Counted from the stretch's first letter, positions 4,725 to 61,942 are shown. The stretch: DNA of 64,000 bases from Candidatus Falkowbacteria bacterium (GCA_963747695.1 CAVVFV010000010.1:389618-453617); one strand, 5' to 3'. The notes: a model not told the origin generated them from the sequence alone. Numbers and translations: made by a program.

Positions 4725-5690
4725 TTAAATAGTTGGGTTGGTCAGGACGGCATTTAAATTAAAGCTTGGTATATTAAGCTGCTCTGTAAAGGCAGTTTTT
4801 TTGTTTTGGCCGAAATAGGCTTCGGCGGGAGTAAGGTAGTTGAGCGACTGATGCGGACGGTAATTGTTGTAGCTGTCAAAAAATTTCGTTAAGCCGGCTC
4901 GGCATTCAGCCACCGATTCGTAGTGCTTGATGTAAACATCCTGCTGTTTAACTGTCCGCCACAATCGCTCAATGAAGATATTGTCCAAACAGCGGCCTTT
5001 GCCGTCCATGCTGATTTTGACGCCTTTTTCCAGACTGGCGGCGGTGAATTTCGGACTGGTAAAATGGCTGCCCTGATCAGAGTTGAAAATCTCAGGGATT
5101 GCCAAGGCATAGGCTCGCTCTTGAACTCGCAAGCAAAAATCGATATCTAATGTGTTAGACAATTCCCAGGCAATGACATAGCGCGAATGCCAATCGATGA
5201 TAGCCGTTAAATAGCAGAAGCCGTGTTCTAATCTGATGTAGGTGATATCCGTGCTCCAAACCTGATTCGACCTGGTGATTGATAGTCCGCGGAGCAGATA
5301 CGGATAAATTTTATGCTGTTTGTCCGGCTGGCTCAAATCCCTCTTTTTCTTCGGATATATCGCCGTAATACCCATCTTGATCATTAGCGTCCGGACATGT
5401 TTTTTACCAACCGGAATTTTATGGTCGCGCCTGATAATGGCCGCTATCGTCCTCTTGCCGTAGCTTGGATTTTCCGTATATATTTCATCAATCAGATTCA
5501 TAATGAGCAGATCCCTCTCGCTGACTTCGGTCTGGTAATACAGGCGGGAGCGGGAGATGTCCAGCAATTCAGTCTGGCGGGTCAGAGTGATATCAGGATT
5601 TTCTCGGTCGACCAATTTTAGCCGGTCGATCATCGTCAAAGATTGATAATTTTTTTTTGAGCCAGTCGAGCTCAATGTCTCGCTGGCCAA
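4725..5690 (-). CDS. IS3-family transposase OrfB (DDE integrase core)
   Basis: DDE triad context is visible (WSTDITY, NSDQGSHFTS, DNIFIERLWRTVK). Probably expressed as an OrfAB fusion. Confidence 0.88.
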   Translation of the reverse strand: MASETLSSTGSKKNYQSLTMIDRLKLVDRENPDITLTRQTELLDISRSRLYYQTEVSERDLLIMNLIDEIYTENPSYGKRTIAAIIRRDHKIPVGKKHVRTLMIKMGITAIYPKKKRDLSQPDKQHKIYPYLLRGLSITRSNQVWSTDITYIRLEHGFCYLTAIIDWHSRYVIAWELSNTLDIDFCLRVQERAYALAIPEIFNSDQGSHFTSPKFTAASLEKGVKISMDGKGRCLDNIFIERLWRTVKQQDVYIKHYESVAECRAGLTKFFDSYNNYRPHQSLNYLTPAEAYFGQNKKTAFTEQLNIPSFNLNAVLTNPTI

Positions 5691-6087: not shown

Positions 6088-6921
6088 ATGGATAATGATT
6101 GTCAGTATTCCGATATTCTGGCTCGTTTCGTGGCGCTGCAGGACAAAGTTTTTGTTCTGAGGATCAGCGGCAAGATTTTTGCCAGTCAATTTATTACCGA
6201 AGTGCTTGATAATGTGGCGAATTTTCTCTATTCCGGAGTTCGGCTGATTATCGTGCTTGACGTCGAGGATCAGGCCGAGGAAAAAATGAAAACCGCCAAG
6301 ATTGAGATCATTAAAAATGACCGAGTCATAGTCATGCAACCGGCGGCCATTCCGCTAATCGAAAGCGCCTACGTAGAAATGCGGGTCAAGCTGAGGGAAA
6401 TCGAACAGAACTTGAAGAACAAGCCGAGGGTCGCCTGGGCCGACGAAGCGGTCCTGGCCGAGTCGTACGGCGAGGGATACCAGAGTACCGGCAAAGTCGA
6501 AGCGATCGATGCCCGAGTTCTCTCTCCCTGCCCCTCCGAATTGCCGTACGTGCCGAAATTGTTCATTGTGCCGACGCTCTGCAAATCAACCGTCGGTGAA
6601 TTTTATTATGTCGATGCCAACGAGGTTGCCGCTTCCTTAGCCGTTAATTTGGGAGCTAAGGAATTAATTCTTGTCAGTGAAAGCGGCGTGACCAACAAGG
6701 GCGATAAGACCGTTTTTTCGCGGCTTTCGCTGGAGCAGGCCGAAGGCTTGATCAAAAAATCCGACACGCCCGATGACTTGGCCTTGGAATTGAGAGCCGC
6801 CAAAGCAGTACTGACTAATAAGGAGACTTCTAAGGTCGAGAAGGTGTGGATCATCGGCCCGAAAGAACTCGCCGCCTGCATATTTTCCGTCATCGGAGCG
6901 GGGACGATAATCGAGGGTTGA
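6088..6921 (+). CDS. amino-acid-kinase-fold protein (N-acetylglutamate-kinase-like)
   Basis: 277 aa with a GGAGG RBS upstream. It opens with VFVLRISGKIF, has an NAGK-like central block (...FYYVDANEVAASLAVNLGAKELILVSESGV...) and ends ...GAGTIIEG. The usual HGGG motif is not evident. Confidence 0.45.
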   Translation: MDNDCQYSDILARFVALQDKVFVLRISGKIFASQFITEVLDNVANFLYSGVRLIIVLDVEDQAEEKMKTAKIEIIKNDRVIVMQPAAIPLIESAYVEMRVKLREIEQNLKNKPRVAWADEAVLAESYGEGYQSTGKVEAIDARVLSPCPSELPYVPKLFIVPTLCKSTVGEFYYVDANEVAASLAVNLGAKELILVSESGVTNKGDKTVFSRLSLEQAEGLIKKSDTPDDLALELRAAKAVLTNKETSKVEKVWIIGPKELAACIFSVIGAGTIIEG

Positions 6922-7722: not shown

Positions 7723-9385
7723 ATGAATGAAACAGGAAAATTATTTTTAAAACAAGAACCCGTGCCGTTGAAATTCGGCACGAGCGGGATGCGCGGGCTG
7801 GCGACTGATTTAACGGATTTGGAATGTTATCTTAACATTCTGGGCTTTCTCGACTATTTAAAAAGCATCAGTGCGGATCGAGGGCGGCATCAAAGCAGGC
7901 GCGGTAATTTTTTTGGCCGGAGATTTTCGGCCGAGCACGCGGAGGATTATGAAGGCCATCACTAAAGCGATTAAGGATTCCGGGTGCACGATCAAGGATT
8001 GCGGAAATATGCCGTCGCCGTCCGTGGCCTATTGCGGCTTGCGCCAAAATTGCGCCAGCATCATGGTTACCGGCAGCCATATTCCCGAAGATCGCAACGG
8101 CATCAAGCCTAATAAAGCCAATGGGGAAATCTTGAAAGCCGACGAGCCGGTGATGTTGCAACACGTTGCCGAGGCCAGGGAAAAAATTTATGCCACGTTG
8201 GGAATATCCGGTGGCTTATTTGATCAAGCCGGAATGCTCGTCGAAGATGTGGTAATGCCGGAAGTCGATCGTGAACAAACTGAAATGTATATCAAAAGAT
8301 ATACCGAAGTATTTCCGGAGAATTGTCTTCAAGGAAAGAAAATCGTGGTTTACCAGCATTCATCGGTGGGCCGGGATATTGTCACGGAAATATTCAGGCG
8401 GTTGGGAGCGGAAATCGTGGTTGAAGGCCGGACGGATAAATTCGTTTCCGTCGATACGGAAGCTTTGAAAGATGAAGATTTGAAATTAATGAAAGAGTGG
8501 GCGGAAAAGAATAAACCTTTCGCTTTGATCTCATTCGACGGCGACTGCGATCGGCCGTGGCTGTCCAATGAATTGGGTGAATTTTTACCCGGAGACCTGT
8601 TGGGCGGGCTGACCATGCTGCATTTAGGGGCTGATTTCGGGGCTGTCCCGATAACCTGCAATGATGCGGTTGATCAGATTTTGGCCGGTAAAGCCAAATT
8701 GGTTAAGACAAGAATCGGTTCTCCGTTTGTGATCAGAAGCATGATGGACGCGGCCGAACAGGGGTTTAAAAGAATTTCCGGCTGGGAAGTTAACGGCGGG
8801 TTCCTGACTTACACGTGATTTTAAAATGTATGGAAAAAAACTTACGGCTCTACCCACCCGCGACGCCGTTCTGCCGCTGCTTTGCGTCGTGCTTTTGGCC
8901 GATTGAAAAAAATATCACTCTTTCGGCGATAATGAATGGTTTGCCGAAAAGATATACCAATAGTAATAAAATAAGAGAGTTTCCCGGTCGAGATTTCGGA
9001 AAAAATAATCAATAAATATTCTCCGGAAGATAACACGATTGAGAAGATGGAATTCGGCGCTGAAGAAATAATTGTCGTTAGAATAGACGGAAGCGCGGAA
9101 AAGGTGAAAAACGATTCATCTTTTGGGAAGGAATGGCAGGAAAAGAAAAAAACTTTCGAGGAAAAATATTTTATTCCCAATGGCATTGCCAAAATTATTT
9201 CTTTTAATTATGTGGAGGGATTAAGGATTATGACCGAAAATAAAGAAGTGGTTCACCTGCGCGAGTCGAGTAATGCGCCGGAGATGCGCTGTTATGCCGC
9301 CGCGGATTCTAACGCCCGCGCCGTTGAATTGGTTCACATCGTTTTGACCAAGGTAGTCCCTGAGTTAAGAACCGATCTGGGTTAA
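7723..9385 (+). pseudogene. phosphoglucomutase/phosphomannomutase-family gene split over at least five reading-frame segments
   Basis: FGTSGMRG N-terminus, TGSHIPEDRNGIK active-site loop and ALPTRDAVLPLL domain-IV motif all occur in order but in different frames. Frame changes lie near 7860, 8815, 8900 and 8988. Confidence 0.75.
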
Positions 9386-23526: not shown

Positions 23527-24777
23527 TTATTTTTTTATTAAGACGACTATTTCCCGCCAGACTTTTTGACCGGGGCGGCCGTAGACGATGGTTCCCCGCC
23601 GGGTGGTGTGAAGAATTTCGCGCAAGTTTTCCGGCAGCGGATTGATTACTTGCCAACCGTCCAGATTGGGATTGAGAAAATGAAAATCCGGACGAGACCC
23701 CTCAGTGCGGACCGGAAAGATCATCACGACCCGGCCGTCCGGTTTCAAGATCTTTTTAAATTCCCGCAAAGCCGATGAATATAACTTTTCCAATTTGATC
23801 TTGGTTTTCACCGGATCAGGATTGCCTCTTTGCGGCCCGAGATATGGTTCAGTAACGACGGCATTAATGGAATTAAATTTTATTTTTTGCGAAATTTCGG
23901 TCGCGGAAATATTAAATAATTGGAAATTGGAAATTGGAAATTGGAAATTTGTTTTTAGCCACGCAATATTGTTCTTCGTATCAGAAATCGCTTTTTCGGA
24001 AATGTCGGAACCGATAATATTTTTTATTCCCATCAAGGCTGCTTCCATTAAGATCGTACCCGATCCGCAAAAGGGATCAAGCAGGCTTGGTAGGAACGCA
24101 ATATTTTGCGTTCTGTCCGGCGGGAACGCAAGGCATTGCGTTCCTACGGCGGGAATTTTTCTCGAAAGGTTTAACATGATCTGCGCCAGTTTTGGTGGGA
24201 TCATCCCGGAGGCATCGTCGCGCTCGGGCCGACCGAAATCGCGGAAGGATAATTCTTTGAACGGCTGCACCGCTTCGGTATAGCCTAAATGCATCGTGCC
24301 GCCATCCTCGATCAAGACGATCTCAATCCCCTGCCGGGTCAAGCCGTTCTGCTCGACCACGACGCTCGACAAGGTTTTTTCTTTGCTGGTCACCAGGCGG
24401 CAGCTTACTCCTTTTTGTTTGAGGATTTTTTTGATCGTCAGACCGATGGGAAAAACCGGCAATTTGCTCGCGCCGTAATGGGAAAGGCCGAAGCAGTATT
24501 TATTGGCCTCGGCGCGCTCGGCCAGATCGTCGTCGATTATCTTAAGAATCGCGGCCTTAATCCGATCATTATTATGGCGGTCGACATCCTCGGTAATAAC
24601 GCCGATCTTGATCGTTCCGCCCAGCCGTTTGATCAGTGCCGGAGAGTCCGTGGCCGGATTTTCCAACAGCAAAATATTGCCCGCTACCATGCGAGTTTCC
24701 GCCTCCGGTCGTAAGGCTGAGATTATTTCGGCGGCCGAAAGAGCCGGGTTAGTGCCTAGAACAAAAAAATATTTCAT
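23527..24777 (-). CDS. Trm11/UPF0020-like SAM-dependent (tRNA guanine-N2?) methyltransferase carrying two in-frame repeat insertions
   Basis: 416 aa with a THUMP-like N-terminal half, motif I LLDPFCGSGTILMEAAL and motif IV VVTEPYLG. Repeat-derived peptides are [21 protein letters not shown] and FQFPISNFQLFNI. Confidence 0.75.
   Translation of the reverse strand: MKYFFVLGTNPALSAAEIISALRPEAETRMVAGNILLLENPATDSPALIKRLGGTIKIGVITEDVDRHNNDRIKAAILKIIDDDLAERAEANKYCFGLSHYGASKLPVFPIGLTIKKILKQKGVSCRLVTSKEKTLSSVVVEQNGLTRQGIEIVLIEDGGTMHLGYTEAVQPFKELSFRDFGRPERDDASGMIPPKLAQIMLNLSRKIPAVGTQCLAFPPDRTQNIAFLPSLLDPFCGSGTILMEAALMGIKNIIGSDISEKAISDTKNNIAWLKTNFQFPISNFQLFNISATEISQKIKFNSINAVVTEPYLGPQRGNPDPVKTKIKLEKLYSSALREFKKILKPDGRVVMIFPVRTEGSRPDFHFLNPNLDGWQVINPLPENLREILHTTRRGTIVYGRPGQKVWREIVVLIKK
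23920..23950. repeat. tandem heptamer tract (TTGGAAA x4 plus partial) inside the methyltransferase CDS
   Basis: ttggaaattggaaattggaaattggaaattt, translated on the minus strand as ...FQFPISNFQLF... Confidence 0.85.
24090..24147. repeat. GTAGGAACGCAA double-hairpin palindrome, copy inside the methyltransferase CDS
   Basis: GTAGGAACGCAATATTTTGCGTTC-tgtccggcgg-GAACGCAAGGCATTGCGTTCCTAC. The left arm is identical to the 27214-27237 copy. Confidence 0.85.
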
Positions 24778-34282: not shown

Positions 34283-34486
34283 ATATTAAATAATCTATTC
34301 TTTTTGACGCTAGTAGGCGTCAATTCACAAAAAAAGCATCCCGCCTCGGCGGGATCCTAAAGTCGTCCTGATTTCATACTCAGGGCGCACGTACAGTATA
34401 TAGTCTTGAGAAATCAAGATTCTCTATATTTGGTAATCGGACTTCGGTTCGAGTTTACCCTTCGGCAACGAAGTAAAATTTTAAAA

Positions 34487-36474
<1,988 letters not shown>

Positions 36475-36667
36475 AGGGAGATGTAATATAAATCGGTGAG
36501 CGATTTATAGTTTAGTCGGCTTTCTTCAAGGTCCTTCAGAATTTCTAAAGGAAACCGGTAGAAGGAGAATTGACGCCTGCTAGCTGCAAAAAAATAGATT
36601 ATTTTATAGCAAGAGAAGATCTTCAACAGGTCTTTTTTTGTTGGCAAAATATATTTTTTCTCCAACT

Positions 36668-39204: not shown

Positions 39205-39300
39205 GAAATGCCGGAAATAAATTTATTCCGGATCTTGAAAGAGATCCGGAATTTTATTACCACCTTGGCTCCCGCAGAGTCTCAAATAGGGGCAAAAGAT

Positions 39301-39328
39301 GGGTTACGTGGTATGAGTTATGTGTTAC
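39301..39328. repeat. degenerate heptamer array (GGGTTAC-type x4) just upstream of the clpP promoter -35
   Basis: GGGTTAC GTGGTAT GAGTTAT GTGTTAC. Confidence 0.65.
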
Positions 39329-39335
39329 GCGATTT

Positions 39336-39364
39336 TTGACTTTTCCTTAAATTTTTTATATAAT
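39336..39364 (+). promoter_or_regulatory. consensus sigma70 promoter of clpP
   Basis: TTGACT, 17-nt spacer, TATAAT. Confidence 0.7.
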
Positions 39365-39376
39365 CCATATTACCAA

Positions 39377-39408
39377 AACTAATTAACCAACTAACTAATC
39401 AACTAATT
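39377..39408. repeat. heptamer-periodic AACTAAT-type array abutting the clpP start codon
   Basis: AACTAAT TAACCAA CTAACTA ATCAACT AATTTT, then ATG. Confidence 0.6.
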
Positions 39409-42460: not shown

Positions 42461-42889
42461 TCAGCTGTCACAGATGAATTGAGAGGTTGCGCCGATTAAG
42501 CAGCCGGCGACAAAACTGGTAATGGCATAAGCCGCTAAGACGATGGCCAAGCCGATAATGGCGGAAACGATCTGTCCCTTGGACTTGGTGATCTGTTCTT
42601 CGTCGCCCATGCTGGTCATATACTTAAAACCGGCAATGATGATCAGCACGATAAAAATTGTTCCTAAAAGACCCAGCACCGCGACGATGATGTTGGCGAC
42701 GATGATCCGGATGTCGGTCGGCGCGCCGCTTTGGCCGAAGGCGTGAGAAATAGCGCCGGTGCCGTTTTCAAACCCTTGCTGGCTGTTGATGTCCACCGGG
42801 CTGGCGGCGAGTGCCGCCGGCATCAAAGCTGCTGCCGATAAATTAAGCAAGAAGAGCGGCAATACCAGATAAAAAATGATTTTCTTCAT
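42461..42889 (-). CDS. small membrane protein resembling TrbC/VirB2-type (T4SS) pilins
   Basis: 142 aa from the ATG at 42889. Signal peptide ending ALAASP, then two long hydrophobic helices separated by ...KYMTSMGDEEQITKSKGQ... The tracked start (42931) runs into the heptamer array. Confidence 0.45.
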   Translation of the reverse strand: MKKIIFYLVLPLFLLNLSAAALMPAALAASPVDINSQQGFENGTGAISHAFGQSGAPTDIRIIVANIIVAVLGLLGTIFIVLIIIAGFKYMTSMGDEEQITKSKGQIVSAIIGLAIVLAAYAITSFVAGCLIGATSQFICDS

Positions 42890-42890
42890 A

Positions 42891-42925
42891 AACATGGAAC
42901 ATAGAACATGGAACATAGAACAGGT
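42891..42925. repeat. tandem heptamer array (AACATGG/AACATAG x5) abutting the start of the VirB2-like gene
   Basis: aacatggaacatagaacatggaacatagaacaggt, beginning 2 nt from the ATG at 42889. Confidence 0.8.
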
Positions 42926-43116: not shown

Positions 43117-43145
43117 TATGCTCTATGTTCTTATGCTCTATGATA
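43117..43145. repeat. inverted-orientation partner array (TATGCTC/TATGTTC) abutting the flippase-like gene start
   Basis: tatgctctatgttcttatgctctatgata, then ATG at 43145. It is the reverse complement word family of 42891-42925. Confidence 0.7.
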
Positions 43146-45870: not shown

Positions 45871-46824
45871 ATGAAGTATAAAATAACCAAGGAAAATGTT
45901 GGAAGCCGTTTGGATTTATTTTTGGTGAAAAAAATTAAAAAAACCCGCGGGCAGGCGCAAAAGATGATTGCGGGCGGACAGGTTTTTGTTAATGGGAAAA
46001 TTTTGAGCAATCATTATGCCTTGAAAGAAGGAGAAATGATAGAAGTTAAAAGTGCAAAGTTAAAAGTTAAAAGTAAGCAAGAAAGAGATTTTAATGTTCG
46101 AGTTGTTTATGAGAATCGGGAATTTATTGTCGTGAATAAGCCGGCTGGGCTGATCGTTCACGGCGCGCCCCACATCAAGGGTCCGACGCTGGCCGATTGG
46201 CTGGTTAAAAAATACCCCGAACTTAAAAAAGTCGGGGAGGATAAAACACGGCCCGGCATTATGCATCGCTTGGATAAAGATGTCAGCGGTCTGCTCGTTA
46301 TCGCCCGGACCAACGAATCATTCGCTAATCTGAAAAAGCAATTTCAAAAACGCCAAGTGGAAAAAATTTATACCGCCCTGGTTTACGGCGCGGTGGCCAA
46401 GGAAAACGACCAGATCAATTTTTCGCTTAAGCGCGCGGCGGGCGGACACCGGCAGGCGGCGGTACCGGAAGGTTATAATTTTAAGGAAAACTTTTTGGAA
46501 TTGCGCGAAGCCTTTACCGAATTCCGGGTTTTGCGCCGCTTCGTCAATTATACTTTGCTTGAGGTGAAAATAAAAAGCGGACGCAAACATCAGATTCGCG
46601 TCCATCTCTTCGCTTACGGCTATCCGCTCGTCGGCGATAACCTCTACTCGACCAGAAAAACCCGCGAGGCAAACCGGAAATTCGCTCTGGGCCGGATTTT
46701 CTTGGTATCCAGCCAGCTGTCTTTTTCGGATTTGGCCGGCAAAAGGCATTCTTTCCGTATCGAGCTGCCGCCGGAATTGTCTGATTTCTTATTGAAGCAG
46801 ACGATCATTGGAAAGGATCAGTGA
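45871..46824 (+). CDS. RluA/RluD-family 23S rRNA pseudouridine synthase with S4 domain
   Basis: 317 aa with an S4-like N-terminus (RLDLFLVKK...) and catalytic HRLDKDVSGLLVIA. Confidence 0.88.
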   Translation: MKYKITKENVGSRLDLFLVKKIKKTRGQAQKMIAGGQVFVNGKILSNHYALKEGEMIEVKSAKLKVKSKQERDFNVRVVYENREFIVVNKPAGLIVHGAPHIKGPTLADWLVKKYPELKKVGEDKTRPGIMHRLDKDVSGLLVIARTNESFANLKKQFQKRQVEKIYTALVYGAVAKENDQINFSLKRAAGGHRQAAVPEGYNFKENFLELREAFTEFRVLRRFVNYTLLEVKIKSGRKHQIRVHLFAYGYPLVGDNLYSTRKTREANRKFALGRIFLVSSQLSFSDLAGKRHSFRIELPPELSDFLLKQTIIGKDQ

Positions 46825-51153: not shown

Positions 51154-51196
51154 AAAATGATAATGCAAACTAATGGCAGCCGAACATTGTAAATAT

Positions 51197-51327
51197 AAAA
51201 TCCGAAGCACGAAATCATAAATCCGAAACAAATTCAAAAGTTTAAAATTAAAAATTCAAAACTTTTGAGTTTTTGTTATTTGAATTTTGAACTTGTTTCG
51301 GATTTATTGCTTAGGATTTCGGATTTT
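51197..51327. repeat. 130-bp imperfect palindrome with AAATCCG heptamer-periodic arms (pilin-like gene | PilX-like gene spacer)
   Basis: AAAATCCGAAGCACGAAATCATAAATCCGAAACAAATTCAAAA...TTTTGAACTTGTTTCGGATTTATTGCTTAGGATTTCGGATTTT. Confidence 0.8.
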
Positions 51328-51376
51328 TTAAGTCCGGATCATTAGTAAAAAATTCAATCTATAGTTACCAATATTT

Positions 51377-52120: not shown

Positions 52121-53920
52121 TCATTGCGGATTCAAGGTTACCTCGTATTTCTGCCAAGGCGATGAAATATTGACTGCGTCATCGCTGGTTTGAAAACCGG
52201 CTTTGGAAATGTCGATCATGTAATCGCCGGGAGTTAAACCATCGAACAATACCTGTCCGGAAGGCACGCATTGCGAGGAAAAAGTGACGATTACTTCGCC
52301 GACGTCGGGCGTAAAGGTCGAGCTGGCGGTGGACAGATAAATTTTGTAGCGGAAATAGCGGTTGCCATTATTAATTTCACTGATATTGGTGTCGGTGGCC
52401 GTGTAATATGTGGAAGCGGTGCCGTCCGGCCCTTTAAAATCCCAAGTCAACTTGTCATTATTGGAGGCAAACTGCAGCCGGACGCTCGAAGTTCCGGCGC
52501 TCTCGGGCTGATCAGTCGGAGAGAATTCCAGCTCATAAAAAAAGCTGGCCGAGCCGGCATCGAAGGTAGAAGAAGTCAGATCCCCGGCTGCGACAAACAA
52601 GCCGGCGTCGTTTTTTAATTTTATTTCTCCGGTCGGATGGGCCGTTTCAATATTGCCGTCTGAGCTTTCGTAGGCAGTTTGATCGATCAAATTTTCCTGG
52701 CCAGAACCGCCCATCCAATCAGATTGGCGCAAAAATCCCCGGCCGGTCATCAATTGTTGGGTCGAAGTTCCCTGGGTCAATTCCACGGTGGCGCCGGCCA
52801 GCGCCAGGGTCGTACCGCCCTGGATCACACTGACCAACAGGCTGTCGGGATTTTTGGGAACAGCGATGATCTTGACGTCTTGGATACTGCCGGGAGCCAA
52901 GGAGAGCGGAATCGGAGAGATCGAGCCCGCCAGATCGCGGGTGGTATCGGTAAAAGTGAGGGTATAAGTGTCCGCTTCAAGATCGTTGAGGACTTTCGAT
53001 CCGGACGAGTCAGTATTGAAGGTACTTTGATATTTCAAAACATCGGGTGTGCCGATCAATTTGCTGCCTCGTAGAGAGAAATTGATCCCGGGTACCGGAG
53101 CACAAGTTTCAGTAACGCTTTCAACATCAAGCTCGGAAGTCTGGTCGATGACAAAACTGGTTTGGGTAACTTGCTGGACCGCGACGGTGGCGTCCGGCAT
53201 GACGGGATTGGGATTAGTTGAAGAGCCTACCGGGTATGTCCGGTCCTGCGAATATCCCGGTTTGGAAATTTTGATCGAGTAAGCGTTTACGCCCGGCGGC
53301 ACATCGACGATTTCGAGCATGCCTTTGTTGTCGGTGACGTCGTTGACCACGGTCGGCGGTACGGTCTGGTCGTTCTCAATGTGAGCGTTAGCTTGCGGCA
53401 CCGGCTGACCGCTGGCGTCAATAACTTGGATAAAAAGCGCGCCGTTGGTGGTGGAATTTTCCAAATTTTTCGGAGCGATAAATTCCGTAAAAGTCTGCAC
53501 CGGGAAACGGGAATTGCCGGGTACGGAGATTTTCACCTCCATCTGCTTATAGTCGGCCGGCGAAGTATCTTTCGGAGTTCCGCTCAAGGTTCCGTCAAAC
53601 GGATCGTCGATGTTGCGGATCGTCGTTTCCACCAGAAAATTAAAATTATCGCGGGTGATATTTTGCAGTTGCGCTATTTTTCCCGCCGGTATGCCGCCGG
53701 CGATGCCGACATCGGAGTACGGCATATTGTGGGCGATTTCGAATTGTTCGTTGGCTAAAGAGGCAGCGGTGACCAGCAGCCGCGAAGTTTCGACCAGCTT
53801 AGTGGCGCCGCTAAACGCGCCGTAAATGCCGGCGGCGATCACGGAAAAAACGGCAATACCGACCAGAGCTTCGATCAGGGTGAAACCGGCGGAATTAAAT
53901 TTCGGTTTATTTATTTTCAT
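52121..53920 (-). CDS. large pilin-like protein (prepilin N-terminus + carboxypeptidase-regulatory-like beta-sandwich repeats)
   Basis: 599 aa from the ATG at 53920 with ...NSAG|FTLIEALVGIAVFSVIAAG. The tracked start (53995) reads through the heptamer array. Confidence 0.8.
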   Translation of the reverse strand: MKINKPKFNSAGFTLIEALVGIAVFSVIAAGIYGAFSGATKLVETSRLLVTAASLANEQFEIAHNMPYSDVGIAGGIPAGKIAQLQNITRDNFNFLVETTIRNIDDPFDGTLSGTPKDTSPADYKQMEVKISVPGNSRFPVQTFTEFIAPKNLENSTTNGALFIQVIDASGQPVPQANAHIENDQTVPPTVVNDVTDNKGMLEIVDVPPGVNAYSIKISKPGYSQDRTYPVGSSTNPNPVMPDATVAVQQVTQTSFVIDQTSELDVESVTETCAPVPGINFSLRGSKLIGTPDVLKYQSTFNTDSSGSKVLNDLEADTYTLTFTDTTRDLAGSISPIPLSLAPGSIQDVKIIAVPKNPDSLLVSVIQGGTTLALAGATVELTQGTSTQQLMTGRGFLRQSDWMGGSGQENLIDQTAYESSDGNIETAHPTGEIKLKNDAGLFVAAGDLTSSTFDAGSASFFYELEFSPTDQPESAGTSSVRLQFASNNDKLTWDFKGPDGTASTYYTATDTNISEINNGNRYFRYKIYLSTASSTFTPDVGEVIVTFSSQCVPSGQVLFDGLTPGDYMIDISKAGFQTSDDAVNISSPWQKYEVTLNPQ

Positions 53921-53930
53921 AACGCACATC

Positions 53931-53993
53931 ACGTAACACGTAACACGTAACACGTAACACGTAACACGTAACACGTAACACGTAACACGTAAC
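53931..53993. repeat. perfect tandem heptamer array (ACGTAAC x9; GTGTTAC on the coding strand) 10 nt upstream of the large pilin-like gene start
   Basis: 63 bp of uninterrupted 7-bp periodicity. Confidence 0.9.
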
Positions 53994-54074
53994 AATAAAC
54001 TCTGCTCGATAAATTAAAAAAACACCTTAAATTTAAAAAAAGTCAATTATTCGGAAAGATATCGAATTAAGGTC

Positions 54075-54108
54075 TTGTTACGCGCTATGTGATAGGTGTT
54101 GCGTGAGG
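54075..54108. repeat. degenerate inverted partner of the 53931-53993 array, just after the pilC stop
   Basis: cttgttacgcgctatgtgataggtgttgcgtgag carries GTTAC/GTGAT-type words in the opposite orientation. Confidence 0.5.
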
Positions 54109-55254
54109 TTAGACTGTCGAGGTAAGATCGTACATCGGCATGATGATGGCGATGGCGATCGCACCGACGCCGACGCCGAGCAAGAGGATGAGAACCGGTT
54201 CAATGATCGAAGGAAGATTTTGCATGATCTGGTCGACTTCGCCCTCATAGAATTCCGCCAGATCGGACAAAATATTGCTCACCTCGCCGGTTTGTTCGCC
54301 GACCGTGATCATCTGCGTGACCATCGGCGGAAAAAAATTCGGATAATTCTTGATGATCTCGTTGATCTGTCCGCCTTTTTTTATTTGTTCGCTGATTTCC
54401 ATGATCACCCGGCGGTAATGCAAGTTGGAGACGACGTTGGCAGTGATGCGGAAAGCGTTGACGATCATCACATCGGTTTTTAAAAGTGAACCGGCGGTCC
54501 GGGAAAAGCGGGCCAGATTGACTTTTTTGACGATTGGCCCGAAGATCGGTAGCCGGAGAATCATCCCCTGATAAATATATTGGCCTTTTTCCGAGTGGAG
54601 AAAAGTCCAAACAGCTGAAATCAAGACGAGAGCGCCGACCAAAGATAATAGCCAATTATTGGCCAGGAAGTTGCTAGTGCCGATCAGGATACGGGTGGAA
54701 AGCGGCAACGGAACATTGCTGTCGGTAAAAACCGAAGTTATTTTGGGAATGACGAAAACCATCATAAAGATTCCGATGGCGACCATGGCGATGACGACGA
54801 TGGTCGGGTAGATCAGGGCGCCCTTGATCCGCGAATTCAATTCGTATTGTTTTTTGGTTTGCAAATAAAGCTGTTTGAGCACGTCTTCCAATTTTCCGGA
54901 AATTTCTCCCGAACCGACCATATTAATGAAAAGTTCGTTAAAGACTCGGGGGTATAATTTCAGGCTGTCGCTCAGACTGGAGCCTTGTTCCAGCTTCAGG
55001 GCGACTTGTTTGAGGATGCGGGAAAAATTCTTGCTTTCGGTTTGTTCGGCCAAAGTGCGGAAAGAAGCCAGCACCGGTATGCCGGACTTGATCATTACCG
55101 AAAGATTCTGGATGAAAACCAGTTTTTCGCGGATGCTGACGCCCAAGATGCTATACCAAAGATCCTCCAGCTGCTGGGAGAATGATTTTTTTTCTTCGGC
55201 GCTTGGTCCCAAATTTTCCGGTTTGATTTTTTTGTCGGGCTTGATAGTAGGCAT
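54109..55254 (-). CDS. pilC: type IV pilus inner-membrane platform protein PilC (GspF family)
   Basis: 381 aa with two T2SSF repeats and three TM segments. Confidence 0.88.
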   Translation of the reverse strand: MPTIKPDKKIKPENLGPSAEEKKSFSQQLEDLWYSILGVSIREKLVFIQNLSVMIKSGIPVLASFRTLAEQTESKNFSRILKQVALKLEQGSSLSDSLKLYPRVFNELFINMVGSGEISGKLEDVLKQLYLQTKKQYELNSRIKGALIYPTIVVIAMVAIGIFMMVFVIPKITSVFTDSNVPLPLSTRILIGTSNFLANNWLLSLVGALVLISAVWTFLHSEKGQYIYQGMILRLPIFGPIVKKVNLARFSRTAGSLLKTDVMIVNAFRITANVVSNLHYRRVIMEISEQIKKGGQINEIIKNYPNFFPPMVTQMITVGEQTGEVSNILSDLAEFYEGEVDQIMQNLPSIIEPVLILLLGVGVGAIAIAIIMPMYDLTSTV

Positions 55255-55260
55255 CGAAAT

Positions 55261-55350
55261 TAAGTTAAAAGAAAAAACTAATAAGTAATAAGTAAAAATA
55301 AAAAAATAGTTAAAGCAACTTCCAATTTTTTACTTTTTATTTTTAACTTA
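55261..55350. repeat. AT-rich imperfect palindrome with AATAAGT/TTACTTT words (pilB stop | pilC start spacer)
   Basis: TAAGTTAAAAGAAAAAACTAATAAGTAATAAGTAAAAATAAAAAAA...TTTTTTACTTTTTATTTTTAACTTA. Confidence 0.65.
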
Positions 55351-57084
55351 TTCTTGTGTTACTCTCATCACTTCTTCGAGATTGGTCAGGCCGCTGACCG
55401 CTTTGATGAAGCCGTCTTCCACCAGGCTAAGCATGCCCTGTTTTTCCGCTTGTTTCCGCAAGGCGGCGGTGTCGACCGTGTTGGTGATGATCTCGGCCAT
55501 TTCCGGAGTCATTTCCAAAGTTTCGTAAACGCCGATCCGACCTTTGTAGCCGGAGTTATTGCAGCGATTGCAACCGGTGCCGCGATAGAAAGTGATCGAT
55601 TCCAGGCTGTCTTTGGATTCGATGGTTTTTCCGCGTTCGAGCCGGGCCAGGATATCGGTGATGTCCAGTTGCTTTTCAATATCTTCGACGGCTTTTTTGG
55701 AAAGGTGATACGGCTGCTTGCAGTATGGGCAGACTTTTCTGACCAGACGCTGGGCGATGATCAGATTGGTCGTCGAAGCGATCAGAAAGGAAGGGATCCC
55801 CATCTGCGCCAGGCGGGGTAAAGTGGTGACGGCGTCGTTAGTGTGCAGAGTGGATAAGAGCAAGTGGCCGGTCATCGCGGCGTTCACTGAAATTTTGGCG
55901 GTTTCTTCATCGCGAATCTCGCCTACCATAATAATGTTGGGATCCTGGCGCAACAGCGAACGCAGCCCGGCTTCAAAACCGAAACCGATCTTGGGGTTGA
56001 TCTGCGATTGATTGATGTGCGGAATGCGGTATTCGATCGGATCTTCGATGGTGGCGATATTGACTTTGGGAGTATTCAAGACGCTTAAAATAGTATAGAG
56101 CGTGGTGGTCTTTCCCGAACCGGTCGGCCCGGTAACGATGATCATCCCGTGCGGTTTTAGGATATTCTTTTTGACGATCTCCAGCGAGCTGGATAAAAAA
56201 CCGAGATTTTCCAGACTGAGCGCTTGGGCCTTTTCATCCAATAATCTGATGACGACTTTTTCTCCGTCAAAAGTAGGAATGATCGAGACGCGGCAGGAAA
56301 CGCGGTATTTGTCCGTGTCGATCTTAAAGCGTCCGTCTTGCGGCAAGCGGTGTTCGTCGACTTTCAGATTGGAAAGGATCTTGATTCTGGCGATGATGCC
56401 GGGCTGGACATTCTTGTCTAGCGTCATTACGTTATAAAGGATGCCATCGATGCGATAGCGGACGATCACGTCTTTTTCTTCCGGTTCGATGTGGATGTCG
56501 GAAGCGTCGCGGAACATTCCGTATTCCAAGAGATCGTTGACGATGCGGATGATCGGCAGATTGGCCGCGATTTTTTCCAGCTCTTCCGGCTCGGTGACGT
56601 CGAAGCCGTCCGCTTGCTTTTTCGGTTCGCAGAAATTCTTGATCTCGTTATTGATGGTTTCGCGGTATTGTTTCAGCCCTTCCTTGATGCTTTCCGGCGT
56701 CGTCAGATTGACCTCGATCTCGTAGCCGGTTTTTTTCTTCAAGAAATCAAAAATTTCCAGATCTTCCGGGTCGAGCACGGCGATCTTCAGCACTTTGCCG
56801 GTCAGATTGAAAGCGATCAGGTCATGGGCGACCGCGATCGGTTCCGGAACGTTGAGCAAGGCTTCTTTCTGGATGGTCTGCTCTTTCAGATTGACGAACG
56901 GAACCTTGAAGTAGATGGCCGTTTCTTTGGCCAGATCTTCCGGGGCGATGATCTTCTTTTCGGCCAAAATATCTTCGATCCGTTTGTCGTTTTCCTTGGC
57001 TTCGCGGGACAATTTATCGAATTCTTCGGCGGTGATGATCCCGGCGCAGGTCAGGATATTCTTTAATTGTTGTTCGTTGAACAT
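55348..57084 (-). CDS. pilB: type IV pilus assembly ATPase PilB (GspE family)
   Basis: 578 aa with Walker A GPTGSGKTTTLY, an Asp box, a His box and tetracysteine CPYC...CNRC. Confidence 0.93.
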   Translation of the reverse strand: MFNEQQLKNILTCAGIITAEEFDKLSREAKENDKRIEDILAEKKIIAPEDLAKETAIYFKVPFVNLKEQTIQKEALLNVPEPIAVAHDLIAFNLTGKVLKIAVLDPEDLEIFDFLKKKTGYEIEVNLTTPESIKEGLKQYRETINNEIKNFCEPKKQADGFDVTEPEELEKIAANLPIIRIVNDLLEYGMFRDASDIHIEPEEKDVIVRYRIDGILYNVMTLDKNVQPGIIARIKILSNLKVDEHRLPQDGRFKIDTDKYRVSCRVSIIPTFDGEKVVIRLLDEKAQALSLENLGFLSSSLEIVKKNILKPHGMIIVTGPTGSGKTTTLYTILSVLNTPKVNIATIEDPIEYRIPHINQSQINPKIGFGFEAGLRSLLRQDPNIIMVGEIRDEETAKISVNAAMTGHLLLSTLHTNDAVTTLPRLAQMGIPSFLIASTTNLIIAQRLVRKVCPYCKQPYHLSKKAVEDIEKQLDITDILARLERGKTIESKDSLESITFYRGTGCNRCNNSGYKGRIGVYETLEMTPEMAEIITNTVDTAALRKQAEKQGMLSLVEDGFIKAVSGLTNLEEVMRVTQE

Positions 57085-57128: not shown

Positions 57129-57137
57129 ATTATAACA
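57129..57137 (-). promoter_or_regulatory. extended -10 promoter candidate for pilB operon
   Basis: The minus strand reads TGTTATAAT (TGnTATAAT), about 45 nt upstream of the pilB ATG. Confidence 0.45.
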
Positions 57138-57166: not shown

Positions 57167-57236
57167 GTAACTCATAACTCATAACTCATAACTCATAACT
57201 CATAACTCATAACTCATAACTCATAACTCATAACAA
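57167..57236. repeat. tandem heptamer array (ATAACTC x ~10; GAGTTAT toward pilB) upstream of the pilB promoter
   Basis: gtaactc followed by eight perfect ataactc units and ataacaa. Confidence 0.9.
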
Positions 57237-57303
57237 CTAACCTTACTGGTTATATTAAAATTTCAAAAACGATAATTATTTTGAAAAAAGTTTGATATTC
57301 ACC

Positions 57304-57324
57304 GTGTTACGGGTTACGGGTTAC
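57304..57324. repeat. tandem heptamer array (GTGTTAC GGGTTAC GGGTTAC) upstream of the LTD-protein gene promoter
   Basis: Same G(N)GTTA(C/T) word as the pilB-side array but in the opposite orientation, so each array points toward its own gene. Confidence 0.8.
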
Positions 57325-57400
57325 GAGATAAATTCATGTGTTGCGTCTCGCATTGCTTGCTTGATGACAAAAATTTTTATTCTTGCTAAAATAGTTTGGT

Positions 57401-60160
57401 ATGAAATATTTAGGAGGGAAAATATTTTTTATCTTGGGCTTTTTGTTGTGCTCAGGATTTTTTTATTGTCAAAATTGCCAGGCGGCCGCGGCCGGAGCGG
57501 TGGTGATCAACGAGATCGCCTGGATGGGAACGGTGAACAGCCCTAACGATGAATGGCTGGAATTGGCAAACCGCGGGGATGAAGATGTAGTTATTGAAGG
57601 CTGGACGTTAACTTTTGGGACCAGTACGCCGAAAAAAATTGCCAAATGCCAGATCGTCCAGCCTTGTACCGTTCCGGCGGGAGGATTTTTTCTGCTGGAG
57701 CGAACCGATGATACCAGCGCACCGCCGCCGGCCGATTATATTTATACCAGCGCTTTGAATGACAACGGCGAAGTCTTGGAATTAAAAGACGATTCGGGAG
57801 CGCTGATCGATCGCCTTGATGCTTCGGCAAAATGGCCGGCCGGAAATAAGGATTCTCGGCTGACTATGGAACGCGCGGCTGACGATTCCTGGTGCTCAAG
57901 CCAGTCAGCCGGCGGCACGCCCAAAGCGGCCAATGATTGTGCCGACCAGAACTCAGCGGCGAATTTGTCGGCCAATCCGGCAACGCCCGCGGAAACCGGC
58001 GGCGGCTCGGCGCCGGGTTATCGTTACGGTGATGTTTTAATCAATGAATTCGAAAGCGATCCGCCGGCGGGCGAAAACGAATGGGTGGAATTATATAATC
58101 CCGGCGGCGGAGCTATCCCGTTGACTGGCTGGACGATTGCCGACGGCTCGGGCAAAGAAACGCCGCTCGCCGGCGGTTTCGATGAAAATAATTATTTTTT
58201 CTTCACGGCGGAAAAATTCAAAGGCGCTTTGAATAATGACGGCGATGGGATTTATTTGTATAACGGCGCGCACGCCTTGATTGATGAAGTCGCTTATGGA
58301 AAATTCGGCGACCAGCCGGATAATAACGCGCCGGCGCCGGGGAAAGGCCAGTCAACGGCTTTAAAGATCGACGGTAAAAAAGCCTTGTTTGATAAAGACA
58401 GCTACGCCGTGACCATTACTCCGACCGAAGGCGGAACAAATATCATCACCGCTCCGGCCAGCCAGACTGATGATAGCTCGACTTCCAGCGCTGCCATCCC
58501 GGGCGATATCTCGATCACGGAAATTTTTCCCAATCCGGCCGGTTCGGATCGCAGCGGCGAATTTATCGAACTTTATAATAATTCGGATGCGTTGGTCGAT
58601 CTGACCGGTTATCGGATCGATATTGTCGGCGGGCGCAGTTTTGAATTCGGCAAATTTTTCAATCCAACCCATTCCTTGCCGGCGGGAGGATATTTTGCGC
58701 TATACCGCTCCGCAAGCAATCTGGTTTTGGATAATAACGGCGGCACGATAAAGTTGTACGCGCCGGGGAAAACCCGGGCGGCGCAAAGCTTACAATATGA
58801 TCAAGCCGAGGAAGGTTACAGCTATTGCGACACGGCTCAGCTTGATTTGAGAAACGCCAATAGCGCGACGAAAAAATTTTTAAATAATTCTTTATTGCTT
58901 TCCCGCTGGGTTTGGAGCGCTACTCCCACGCCGGGAGCGGCCAATCAGATCAAGACTCCCAATAATCCGCCGCGGCCGAGTTTTTCCGCGCCGGCTAAGA
59001 TCATTGCCGGCGTCGCGGTTGATTTCGACGCTTCGGATAGTTTCGATGAAGACGGCGATCCGCTTTCTTTTGCCTGGGATTTCGGCGATGGCGGCCGGCA
59101 GATCATCGAAGATCCTGTTCACACTTTTCTCACCCCGGGAAATTATCAGATCAAATTGGCCGTGAGTGACGGCGAGGATTCGGCGACTGTGGCTAAAATT
59201 ATCAAAGTCGGCGGAATTTCACCGGCGAGTTTTGCCGCCGCCGCGGGCGCCGCGGCGGTCGGTTCCGGATCAGCGATAAATTCCACTCAGGCTAAAATCG
59301 CCGTCAACAGTCCGCCGCCGGCTTTGCCGAAAAATTCCGGCAAAACGTTGATAGCAAAAGCGGCAAATCCGATCGAGGCTAAAATAAAAGTTGCCGCGCT
59401 CGCGCCAATGCCGGTAAGTTCGGCGGCGATTGACCGGCTAAAGCTGGGCGCGGCGTGGAAAATCACCGGTACGGTTATCGTCTTGCCCGGGAATTTCGGC
59501 ACGCAATATTTTTATGTCAGCGCCGGTACCAGCTCGCCGGCGGTGAAGATCTATAATTACTATCACGATTTTCCGGTGTTGAAGATCGGCGACGTGATTG
59601 AAGCCGCTGGAGTGATTGGCGGATCAGCCACGGATAAATATTTAAAAACCAAAACCGCGGCGAACGTCAAAATTTTAAGCCAGAAGGATCCGCCCGCTCC
59701 GGAGCAGATCACTGCCGCGGGATTTAAGGAAGAAAATTTGGGAAAATTCGTTCAGACTGAAGGCGAAATTGAAAGCAAAAACGGCCAGCTGGTCACCTTG
59801 TTCGACGGTTCGGCGGATTTTGCCGTTTATCTTAAGGCCGCCGCCAATGTCTCTGCCGCCGATTTTAAAGTGGGGCAGAAGATTTCCGTCACCGGATTAT
59901 TGACCAAGGTCGCCAATAATTTAGCCGTTATGCCCCGATCTTCGGCTGATCTGGCCTTGTCCGCTTCGACATCTCCTTCGGCTGATGATAATTCCGGATC
60001 AGTGCTCGGTGCCGCCACCGGTTCTTCAGCCTGGACCTTGCCCGCGCCAAAAAATAATTCTCAAGCTCTGATTTATCTTTTGATCGCGGCGGGAGGAGCG
60101 ATTATTGTTTTAGCCGGCTGGATTAGCAAAAAATATTTTTTCAAGAAAAAGGCGGGATAA
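57401..60160 (+). CDS. secreted, C-terminally membrane-anchored protein with three lamin-tail domains, a PKD domain and OB-fold-like repeats
   Basis: 919 aa with a signal peptide. LTD signatures are VVINEIAWMGT..EWLELAN, VLINEFESDP..EWVELYN and ISITEIFPNPAGSDRSGEFIELYN. PKD signature is DASDSFDEDGDPLSFAWDFGDG. A C-terminal TM helix is followed by KKYFFKKK. Confidence 0.75.
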   Translation: MKYLGGKIFFILGFLLCSGFFYCQNCQAAAAGAVVINEIAWMGTVNSPNDEWLELANRGDEDVVIEGWTLTFGTSTPKKIAKCQIVQPCTVPAGGFFLLERTDDTSAPPPADYIYTSALNDNGEVLELKDDSGALIDRLDASAKWPAGNKDSRLTMERAADDSWCSSQSAGGTPKAANDCADQNSAANLSANPATPAETGGGSAPGYRYGDVLINEFESDPPAGENEWVELYNPGGGAIPLTGWTIADGSGKETPLAGGFDENNYFFFTAEKFKGALNNDGDGIYLYNGAHALIDEVAYGKFGDQPDNNAPAPGKGQSTALKIDGKKALFDKDSYAVTITPTEGGTNIITAPASQTDDSSTSSAAIPGDISITEIFPNPAGSDRSGEFIELYNNSDALVDLTGYRIDIVGGRSFEFGKFFNPTHSLPAGGYFALYRSASNLVLDNNGGTIKLYAPGKTRAAQSLQYDQAEEGYSYCDTAQLDLRNANSATKKFLNNSLLLSRWVWSATPTPGAANQIKTPNNPPRPSFSAPAKIIAGVAVDFDASDSFDEDGDPLSFAWDFGDGGRQIIEDPVHTFLTPGNYQIKLAVSDGEDSATVAKIIKVGGISPASFAAAAGAAAVGSGSAINSTQAKIAVNSPPPALPKNSGKTLIAKAANPIEAKIKVAALAPMPVSSAAIDRLKLGAAWKITGTVIVLPGNFGTQYFYVSAGTSSPAVKIYNYYHDFPVLKIGDVIEAAGVIGGSATDKYLKTKTAANVKILSQKDPPAPEQITAAGFKEENLGKFVQTEGEIESKNGQLVTLFDGSADFAVYLKAAANVSAADFKVGQKISVTGLLTKVANNLAVMPRSSADLALSASTSPSADDNSGSVLGAATGSSAWTLPAPKNNSQALIYLLIAAGGAIIVLAGWISKKYFFKKKAG

Positions 60161-61785: not shown

Positions 61786-61813
61786 CCGTAACCCGTAACC
61801 CGTAACTCGTAAC
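61786..61813. repeat. tandem heptamer array (CCGTAAC x3 + TCGTAAC) in the rmlD/ftsK divergent spacer
   Basis: ccgtaacccgtaacccgtaactcgtaac. Confidence 0.8.
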
Positions 61814-61910: not shown

Positions 61911-61938
61911 TTACTTATTACTTTTTACTTCTTACTTC
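61911..61938. repeat. tandem heptamer array (TTACTTN x4) ending 4 nt before the ftsK ATG
   Basis: ttacttattactttttacttcttacttc. Confidence 0.75.
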
Positions 61939-61942
61939 TTTT

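Follow-up and report, generated by a model that had tools for sequence, protein, structure and literature searches.

In Haemophilus influenzae, the adhesin genes hmw1A and hmw2A carry a heptanucleotide simple sequence repeat (SSR), (ATCTTTC)n, in the 5′ untranslated region (5′-UTR) (PMC12721329; Dawid 1999, as cited in a passage of PMC2651432), and the hairpin of the hmw1A heptamer 5′-UTR is processed by RNase III (PMC12721329). Marine Beggiatoaceae, Cyanobacteria and Bacteroidetes contain intergenic direct repeats of TAACTGA, which have been suggested to act in translation (MacGregor 2015, PMC4679880). As earlier work is summarised in PMC4679880, heptamers are the commonest class of long simple sequence repeats (LSSRs, with units of 5–11 nt) in many free-living bacteria (Mrazek 2007), and the copy number of an (AGAT)n repeat in the 5′-UTR of Moraxella catarrhalis uspA2 sets expression. 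Here we analyse a perfect heptamer array in a 64,000-nt stretch of DNA from Candidatus Falkowbacteria bacterium (GCA_963747695.1, CAVVFV010000010.1:389618-453617; hereafter the window, with positions counted from its first letter). The array lies in the spacer at 53921–54108, between pilC and a large prepilin-like gene. Sense-oriented GTTAYGN and TTACTTN arrays stand before many genes of this small Patescibacteria lineage and form a clade-specific family, to which the array belongs. We tentatively read it as the expanded gene-proximal arm of a conserved two-armed intercistronic cassette, which may act as an RNA-duplex rheostat on the pilin-like protein; we favour this reading without calling it probable.

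Tandem Repeats Finder (TRF) delimits a period-7 array of 9.3 copies at 53930–53994, with 100% matches and a score of 130. On the minus strand, which is the sense strand of the gene, it reads (GTTACGT)n, equivalent to (GTGTTAC)n, and it contains eight overlapping matches to the dimer motif described below. A first-pass annotation, made from the sequence alone, had placed such an array between pilC and a large pilin-like gene and had it ending 10 nt from the start codon. Pfam confirms both neighbours, and the gap to the ATG at 53920 is indeed 10 nt with the boundary at 53931, or 9 nt with the boundary given by TRF. Two degenerate units, GATGTGC and GTTATG(A), are legible in the sequence on the gene-proximal side (53918–53929, minus strand), and the start codon itself (53920–53918) lies inside the second of them. 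On the other side of the array is an AT-rich core of 80 nt (53995–54074, minus strand), beyond which degenerate reverse heptamers on the plus strand (54075–54109) make up the 5′ arm in the sense of a pilC-to-pilin transcript. This partner begins right at the pilC stop codon, with a 1-nt overlap, and pairs with the array in at least eight registers (inverted-repeat pairs I2, I4–I8, I14 and I15), the arms being 30–34 nt long and about 80% complementary according to the repeat finder. Reverse heptamers, the core of about 80 nt and forward GTTACGT units together form a cassette of about 190 bp. The opposite-orientation partner and the heptamer-built palindrome described in the first-pass annotation are therefore real, and the palindrome is both conserved in three species and predicted to fold. 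Exact-protein look-ups of PilC, PilM and PilB match one sample, ERR11748453, plus the NCBI contig; a short-read contig of that sample (L001) ends inside both the pilin array and a second array upstream of pilB.

The two-armed cassette occupies the orthologous pilC–pilin spacer in three species: that of the window, that of locus L124 (GCA_028716485.1; PilB 80% and pilin 67% identical to the window) and that of loci L205–L207 (pilin 67% identical). In L124, reverse degenerate heptamers are followed by (GTTACGT)x12.6, which runs straight into ...GTTATGAAA, and the start context GTTACGT GTTATGA stands at the same place as the degenerate units of the window. In L205–L207, the pilC stop is followed by reverse-oriented units, CTCACAA(CACGTAA)x3.4 CTCATAACAC, then by about 95 nt of AT-rich sequence and by a forward arm, GTGTTAC GTGTTAT GAGTTAT GAGTTGT GAG TTTTTTT ATG, whose five units end 7 nt from the ATG. 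The number of forward units at the orthologous site is thus 9.3 in the window, 12.6 in L124 and about 5 in L205, which makes the array a plausible slippage substrate, as the first-pass annotation had supposed. An alignment across species is obtained for the arms and the start-codon context but not for the core, indicating that the cassette has been inherited under constraint at its arms; comparison of the three sequences indicates that unit number changes in 7-nt steps over evolution.

Beyond these three species the cassette disappears. At 56 more distant orthologous loci (43–61% pilin identity) with enough upstream sequence, a weak period-7 run was found in only one, and no arrays were hidden at their contig ends; in this set pilC often directly abuts the pilin ATG. 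We therefore rejected the idea that the pilin family as such conserves the array, and regard the cassette as an insertion into a tightly coupled gene pair. As a separate observation, a distant pilin orthologue (L173, ~191–230) carries (GCAAAAG)x4 within the region coding for the prepilin leader (MKAKGKRQKAKV…).

An insertion of about 165–220 bp where pilC abuts the pilin gene in most relatives invites comparison with a miniature inverted-repeat transposable element (MITE): a small non-autonomous element with heptamer terminal inverted repeats, possibly bearing an outward promoter, would have entered the pilC–pilin spacer and the DNA upstream of pilB. L205 does hold a second, clearly paralogous copy of the cassette upstream of pilB (6525–6700), with a core about 75% identical to the first (alignment z 13.3). 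Inverted heptamer pairs also surround AT-rich spacers in L016 and L084, two other Patescibacteria, and the window contains an IS3-family transposase gene (4725–5690, minus strand; HTH_21 and rve integrase core). We nevertheless consider this origin improbable, since the cassette upstream of pilB in the window (57168–57325) is only marginally similar to the pilin cassette (z 3.4), the three cassette cores of the window can hardly be aligned, no further copies of the cores were found in the 64-kb window, in L122–L124 or in L205, and a target-site duplication is not evident.

We examined the reading frame through the array, because the first-pass annotation had suggested that unit gain or loss could bring an upstream TTG in or out of frame with the pilin gene. 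The TTG at 53995 is in frame, the open reading frame (ORF) 52121–53995 is open, and translation from this codon would read through the array as LLRVTCYVLRVTCYVLRVTCYVMCVMKINK... (LLRVTCYV...), that is, as the LRVTCYV repeats first described. These observations speak for a frame switch that would add or remove an LRVTCYV-repeat extension of the prepilin, yet we judge such a switch most improbable. The forward array contains no stop codon in any frame and one GTG per unit, so that every copy number offers an in-frame upstream start and no frame-based on/off logic is left. L124, with 12.6 units, has an in-frame TTG ORF as well. Array-less homologues start at an aligned, conserved Met and have normal prepilin leaders of 11–13 residues, and translated arrays were not seen as N-terminal extensions of longer pilin homologues. 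We place the array, as did the first-pass annotation, in what is most likely an untranslated leader.

Two other heptamer tracts in the window lie inside coding sequence. A perfect (AATTGGA)x4.6 tract at 23918–23949, encoding ...KTNFQFPISNFQLF..., is located inside an open 416-aa ORF for a UPF0020/THUMP-type methyltransferase (23527–24777, minus strand); gain or loss of one unit would shift the frame there, and as a candidate for phase variation this tract is more classical than the pilin array. An (AAGTTAA)x4.6 tract at 46043–46074 falls inside the ORF of an RluD-like pseudouridine synthase, between the S4 and catalytic domains, and the orthologue in L122 carries the same repeat (7893–7911).

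On the gene strand of the pilC–pilin spacer, which is the minus strand, we found neither a sigma-70-like promoter at the stringency of the scan nor an intrinsic terminator, understood as a GC-rich stem with a U-tract; read-through from pilC is therefore plausible. The spacers had no match to Rfam families. The pilin ATG lacks a Shine–Dalgarno (SD) sequence, although the 16S rRNA ends in a canonical anti-SD, CACCTCCTTTCT. Complementarity of GUUACG to the conserved 16S stretch UCGUAAC was considered and dismissed as a likely coincidence.

As gene-strand RNA, the spacer is predicted to fold more stably than expected in all three species, with energies of −56.6 kcal/mol in the window (z −2.7), −73.1 kcal/mol in L124 (z −3.8) and −45.5 kcal/mol in L205 (z −4.65). 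The fold predicted for the window has the 5′ arm paired with units of the array and the other units paired among themselves. The predicted outer stem of L124 extends to the region of the start codon, and the centroid structure of L205 retains a stem of about 30 bp. A three-species consensus predicts a 23-bp long-range stem with two compensatory pairs. The forward arrays are also predicted to fold by themselves, (GUUACGU)9 at −31.7 kcal/mol (z −2.9) and the L124 array at −41.6 kcal/mol (z −4.2), the self-complementarity of (GUUACGU)n running through its ACGU cores.

We propose the following mechanism for these features. The cassette would be transcribed together with pilB–pilC, and in the RNA the 5′ arm could pair with any five of the nine units while the others pair mutually via their ACGU cores. 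The two arms, or the array by itself, would thus make a long imperfect duplex beside a start codon that has no SD. This duplex might control ribosome access or, as at H. influenzae hmw1A, might be the substrate of an RNase specific for double strands. If its rate is high enough to count within populations, replication slippage would alter unit number in 7-nt steps and so make the duplex more or less stable and change its register. In this way the array would act on translation or processing as a heritable rheostat for the amount of pilin-like protein, rather than as a frame-based on/off switch.

The pilin array belongs to a family within the window. Lag 7 is the only lag between 4 and 12 that yields long arrays, with five against zero or one at each other lag, and the intergenic DNA of the window shows raised identity at lags 7 and 14. 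The dimer GTTAYGNGTTAYG (GTTAYGN) has 23 matches at five separate sites, where shuffled sequence gives an expectation of 0.02, and each of the five sites is oriented toward the next gene, namely clpP, the pilin gene, pilB, the gene of an LTD/PKD surface protein and rmlD. Arrays upstream of ftsK and, as a short (TTACTTA)n run, upstream of pilC share this sense orientation, which supports the proposed mechanism, as do five Patescibacteria arrays outside the window that end 5–17 nt before start codons, one of them before dnaK. The distance between array and start codon is 2 nt for ftsK, 9 nt for the pilin gene and 30 nt for rmlD, and 75–83 nt for clpP, pilB and LTD/PKD.

The second perfect array, (GTTATGA)x9.6 on the minus strand (plus strand (TAACTCA)x9.6; 57168–57234, TRF score 134), lies 83 nt upstream of the pilB ATG and also upstream of the pilB −10. 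The latter is an extended −10, TGTTATAAT, at 57137–57129, and TGTGTTATAAT is found in L124 and L205 too, so that it is kept in three species. Separated from this array by 71 nt is the inverted (GTTACGG)x3 (57306–57325, plus strand; repeat and dimer scans), which forms the opposite arm of the pilB-upstream cassette in a layout like that of the pilin cassette and points forward to the LTD/PKD gene at 57401. A promoter-like ATGACA-17-TAAAAT follows it at 57364–57392. The array (GTTACGG/A)x4 (61786–61813, minus strand; TRF and dimer scan) runs forward 30 nt before the rmlD ATG. Ahead of ftsK, identified from plus-strand translation, (TTACTTN)x4.3 (61911–61940, plus strand; TRF) runs forward and ends 2 nt before the ATG at 61943. 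The remaining member, a degenerate GTTAYGN x4 (GGTTACGTGGTATGAGTTATGTGTTACGCG; 39302–39331, plus strand; dimer scan), is situated between an upstream terminator (39225–39252) and the strong clpP promoter TTGACT-17-TATAAT (39336–39364). Since arrays stand before promoters at clpP, pilB and LTD/PKD and at the start codons of the pilin gene and ftsK, their position relative to promoters is heterogeneous.

Three further observations concern heptamers and related repeats at gene starts. In L205 a heptamer run, TTATCTC/TTAATTC on the gene strand (310–344), lies about 8 nt before the start of ftsK; the ftsK-upstream array is thus conserved in position between species. Downstream of its promoter, the clpP leader (39377–39408) contains, just before the ATG, AACTAAT/TAAC-type repeats with periods of 4, 8 and 12 nt. 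In the spacer between a divergent T4SS-pilin gene and polysaccharide-synthase gene, ATG-containing heptamers TTCTATG/TTCCATG and ATGCTCT (42887–42922 and 43117–43142) lie at or overlap both gene starts. In the orthologous spacer of L124 (19608–19642) the heptamer is TTCGTAT instead; array position is conserved, but not the unit.

The family bears on the claim of phase variation. A long perfect tract able to slip is present at the pilin gene (9.3 units) and upstream of pilB (9.6 units), as at contingency loci. The tracts are not, as they would be at such loci, concentrated at surface or host-interaction genes, because clpP, rmlD and ftsK in the window, and dnaK in a different Patescibacteria genome, are also preceded by arrays. 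Of the phase-variation proposal, what stands is that unit number differs across species; the specific link to surface structures and the frame switch do not. With arrays also before housekeeping genes, it resembles a control element tunable through its length rather than an on/off switch specific to the pilus.

Several points weigh against the duplex mechanism. The two compensatory pairs are weak evidence, as they come from three sequences in which both arms derive from the same repeat unit. For the GTTACGG and TTACTTN arrays no structure is predicted, and the hairpin of the pilB–pilC spacer falls short of significance (z −0.32). Folding is therefore not shared by the array family as a whole, and self-structure common to all arrays was rejected. 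L205–L207, from three independent samples, are identical at their short imperfect arrays and show no variation in copy number. Transcription through both arms is assumed, and the paralogous cassette upstream of pilB in the window has no co-directional upstream gene to supply a transcript across both arms. To judge from their sequence context, upstream of recognisable −35/−10 elements, the clpP, pilB and LTD/PKD arrays are probably not transcribed. Finally, a DNA-binding protein explains the conserved inverted repeat equally well.

Such a protein could be a heptad-recognising regulator or nucleoid protein for which the heptamers are tandem sites, with the inverted arms flanking a promoter-bearing AT-rich core and imposing looping or cooperative repression on pilB and the pilin gene. 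Looping operators are known from the gal, ara and deo operons, and the omega repressor of pSM19035 has heptad operators, WATCACW. Heptads of TTTTGAT are present at the Vibrio cholerae ctxAB promoter (bioRxiv 10.1101/2021.05.14.444153). At our locus, inverted arms about 70–115 bp apart may be likened to looping operators. A single core motif, GTTAYG, is common to the five sites against the 0.02 expected, and the clpP, pilB and LTD/PKD arrays sit just upstream of the −35, where activator or UP-like sites typically lie. The cassette is also found upstream of the conserved pilB promoter, in copies that are paralogous in L205 and weakly similar in the window. The genes concerned, however, form no coherent regulon (clpP, rmlD, ftsK, pilus genes and, in a relative, dnaK), and the pilin and ftsK arrays abut start codons, not promoters. 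Perfect arrays of 9–12 units that vary between species, with units GTTACGT, GTTATGA and GTTACGG, look like slippage products instead of selected sites, the same units are arrayed in many unrelated phyla, and no candidate heptad-binding regulator or processing protein was recognised among the proteins of the 64-kb window. Overall we regard operators acting at the DNA level as unlikely.

The distribution of the arrays bears on their possible neutrality. Five period-7 arrays and five GTTAYGN dimer sites occur in the 64 kb of the window, and four and five, respectively, in the 43 kb of L124 and L205; the next-nearest relatives, L122 and L123, have none of either in 30 kb, and 80 other Patescibacteria pilin loci have two arrays and no dimer site in 441 kb. 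The heptamer-array trait is sharply lineage-limited and sporadic. We also scanned species-representative genomes for GTTAYGN x4, the figures that follow being those among the matches listed. Matches came from Bacteroidota, Cyanobacteria, Chloroflexota, several Patescibacteria groups and others, and the matching loci contained more period-7 arrays than arrays at other lags. The commonest unit was GTTATGA (58 of 129), and across phyla there was no bias in orientation toward start codons (56 forward against 65 reverse).

Neutral or selfish repeats that expand by polymerase slippage in permissive intergenic DNA, without function, are favoured by this distribution, the inverted partner then being a decayed older array. 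The trait is sporadic and lineage-wide, with about nine arrays in 107 kb of the clade as set against the counts above, and GTTAYGN arrays recur in many phyla without overall orientation bias. The majority of arrays in the window have no conserved counterpart in L124, and heptanucleotide LSSRs are held in the literature to be the commonest class and possibly a by-product of slippage (PMC4679880, citing Mrazek 2007 in summary). What this account does not readily explain is the pilC–pilin site, where both arms and their complementarity are kept in three species despite a core that has diverged beyond alignment; slippage cannot renew the degenerate 5′ arm, yet about 80% complementarity persists. 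The arrays are, moreover, consistently sense-oriented in the clade and in other Patescibacteria, often 2–17 nt from start codons, and the position of the ftsK-upstream array is conserved in L205. We therefore doubt that the arrays are neutral, while taking that possibility more seriously than operators or insertion, and retain the RNA-duplex rheostat as our tentative reading of the pilin cassette. A broader proposal seems to us unlikely: that in this clade the sense-oriented GTTAYGN/TTACTTN arrays are a new cis-regulatory device replacing the SD region or flanking promoters, in which the slippage-set arm length of the conserved cassettes at the pilus locus would heritably tune expression of pilus components via an RNA duplex or a heptad-binding factor.

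The genes around the cassette are those of a type IV pilus locus. The prepilin-like gene (52121–53920, minus strand) encodes 599 aa with an N_methyl prepilin motif and CarboxypepD_reg/SpaA-like domains (Pfam), its leader reading MKINKPKFNSAG/FTLIE. It has more than 1,300 homologues in Patescibacteria, which make up a family of proteins about 600 aa long with a conserved gene neighbourhood. Upstream lie pilC, encoding the T2SSF platform protein (54109–55254, minus strand; Pfam E=1.7e-56), and pilB, encoding the T2SSE ATPase (55348–57084, minus strand; Pfam); downstream are a second pilin-like gene and pilM, pilN and pilO. In the spacer after the 210-aa pilin-like gene there is a large palindrome (51194–51330) with 68-nt arms that are 76% complementary and 1 nt apart, and comparable palindromes, AAATCCTAAACAAATTCAAA…TTTGAATTTGTTTAGGATTT, occur in several spacers of L124 and L205. 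A repeated intergenic element (…CGCGAATACCGCGAAC… and TTTGTAGTATTCG[CG]ATTAT…) lies upstream of 11161, 26656, 45871 and 48340, the genes preceded by it being a solute-binding protein gene, rpsF, rluD and pilM. Similar elements, CGAATACTACGAAC, are found in L205 spacers. A Logan contig (L208) spans from 43 nt upstream of pilM to about 116 nt past the start of rluD, with both ends in element-bearing spacers.

The rest of the window is ordinary chromosome, including genes for aminoacyl-tRNA synthetases, IF3-L35-L20, S6-SSB-S18, EF-P, RecA, 16S rRNA and ClpP. In the 16S rRNA region (34481–36478) the Rfam match stops at 35893 and the canonical 3′ end, GGATCACCTCCTTTCT, lies at about 36463–36478, which points to an insertion of roughly 500 nt near the 16S 3′ end. 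No 23S rRNA or tRNA genes were found beside the 16S gene, and no tRNA genes in the entire 64-kb window.

Type IV pili play a central part in how Patescibacteria live, including host attachment and DNA uptake, and to our knowledge almost nothing is known of gene regulation in these uncultured bacteria with reduced genomes. If the reading proposed here is true, a cassette whose length is set by slippage, standing before pilB and before a large, possibly adhesive pilin-like subunit, would be a concrete regulatory element in Patescibacteria. It would also extend the class of start-codon-adjacent heptamers to a fourth major lineage, with a case open to conservation analysis between species. If the arrays are neutral, they still break short-read assemblies, and proximity to a surface gene would by itself be no ground for calling a phase-variation switch.

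How, then, does the locus compare with described systems? Like the hmw1A tract, the pilin array has a 7-nt unit and is a long perfect tract upstream of a gene for a surface structure. In both, the tract pairs with a complementary arm outside the repeat to make a long hairpin, which is a prediction in our case; in both, unit number differs between genomes, and the model is one of graded expression rather than a frame switch. Transcription of the SSR, RNase III cleavage and variation within populations have been demonstrated experimentally for hmw1A, whereas the pilin cassette is known from its sequence. The hmw tract lies about 70–100 bp from the start codon, against 9 nt for the pilin array; the family of the pilin array is genome-wide, with members before housekeeping genes too, and the host is an uncultured environmental Patescibacteria bacterium rather than a host-adapted pathogen. 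The uspA2 repeat resembles the pilin array as a tandem repeat before the start codon of a surface-protein gene, and differs in being a tetranucleotide, in a pathogen, with an effect that is experimentally demonstrated.

Like several of our arrays, heptads of the omega and ctxAB type consist of tandem 7-bp units, direct or inverted, that lie at a promoter or upstream of it; in those systems, promoter activity correlates with the number of units. Their unit sequences are unrelated to ours, no cognate protein was recognised in the window, and the pilin array is at a start codon, not at a −35. Heptamers of short tandemly repeated repetitive (STRR) sequences were reportedly described in cyanobacteria by Mazel in 1990. 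LSSRs and STRRs resemble the window's arrays in being heptamer-dominant, intergenic, present in free-living bacteria and possibly driven by slippage; the LSSR description is statistical and genome-wide, without a defined local architecture, whereas here a specific conserved site has a complementary arm beside a start codon.

The TAACTGA class of MacGregor is, together with the hmw1A hairpin, the closest precedent. In both that class and ours, a single preferred heptamer recurs in numerous sets in a genome, well beyond chance expectation, in intergenic DNA and in forward orientation, often within a few nucleotides of a start codon without a canonical ribosome-binding site. In both, the downstream genes are unrelated in function and some are essential, and the phylogenetic distribution is sporadic. 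Indels of 7 nt separate close strains in that class, as 7-nt steps separate species here. The units differ, being GTTACGT, GTTATGA, GTTACGG and TTACTTN in our case, although the sense strand of GTTAYGN resembles the complement of TAACTGA. The arrays are longer, with 9–12 perfect copies compared with two to six TAACTGA copies in BOGUAY. Several arrays here, unlike those of the TAACTGA class, lie upstream of promoters, and inverted two-arm cassettes are conserved between species. Our literature search found no report of such repeats in Patescibacteria, a phylum that PMC4679880 does not report. The general phenomenon has thus already been described; what differs here is the unit, the phylum, the length of the arrays and the conserved two-armed cassette.

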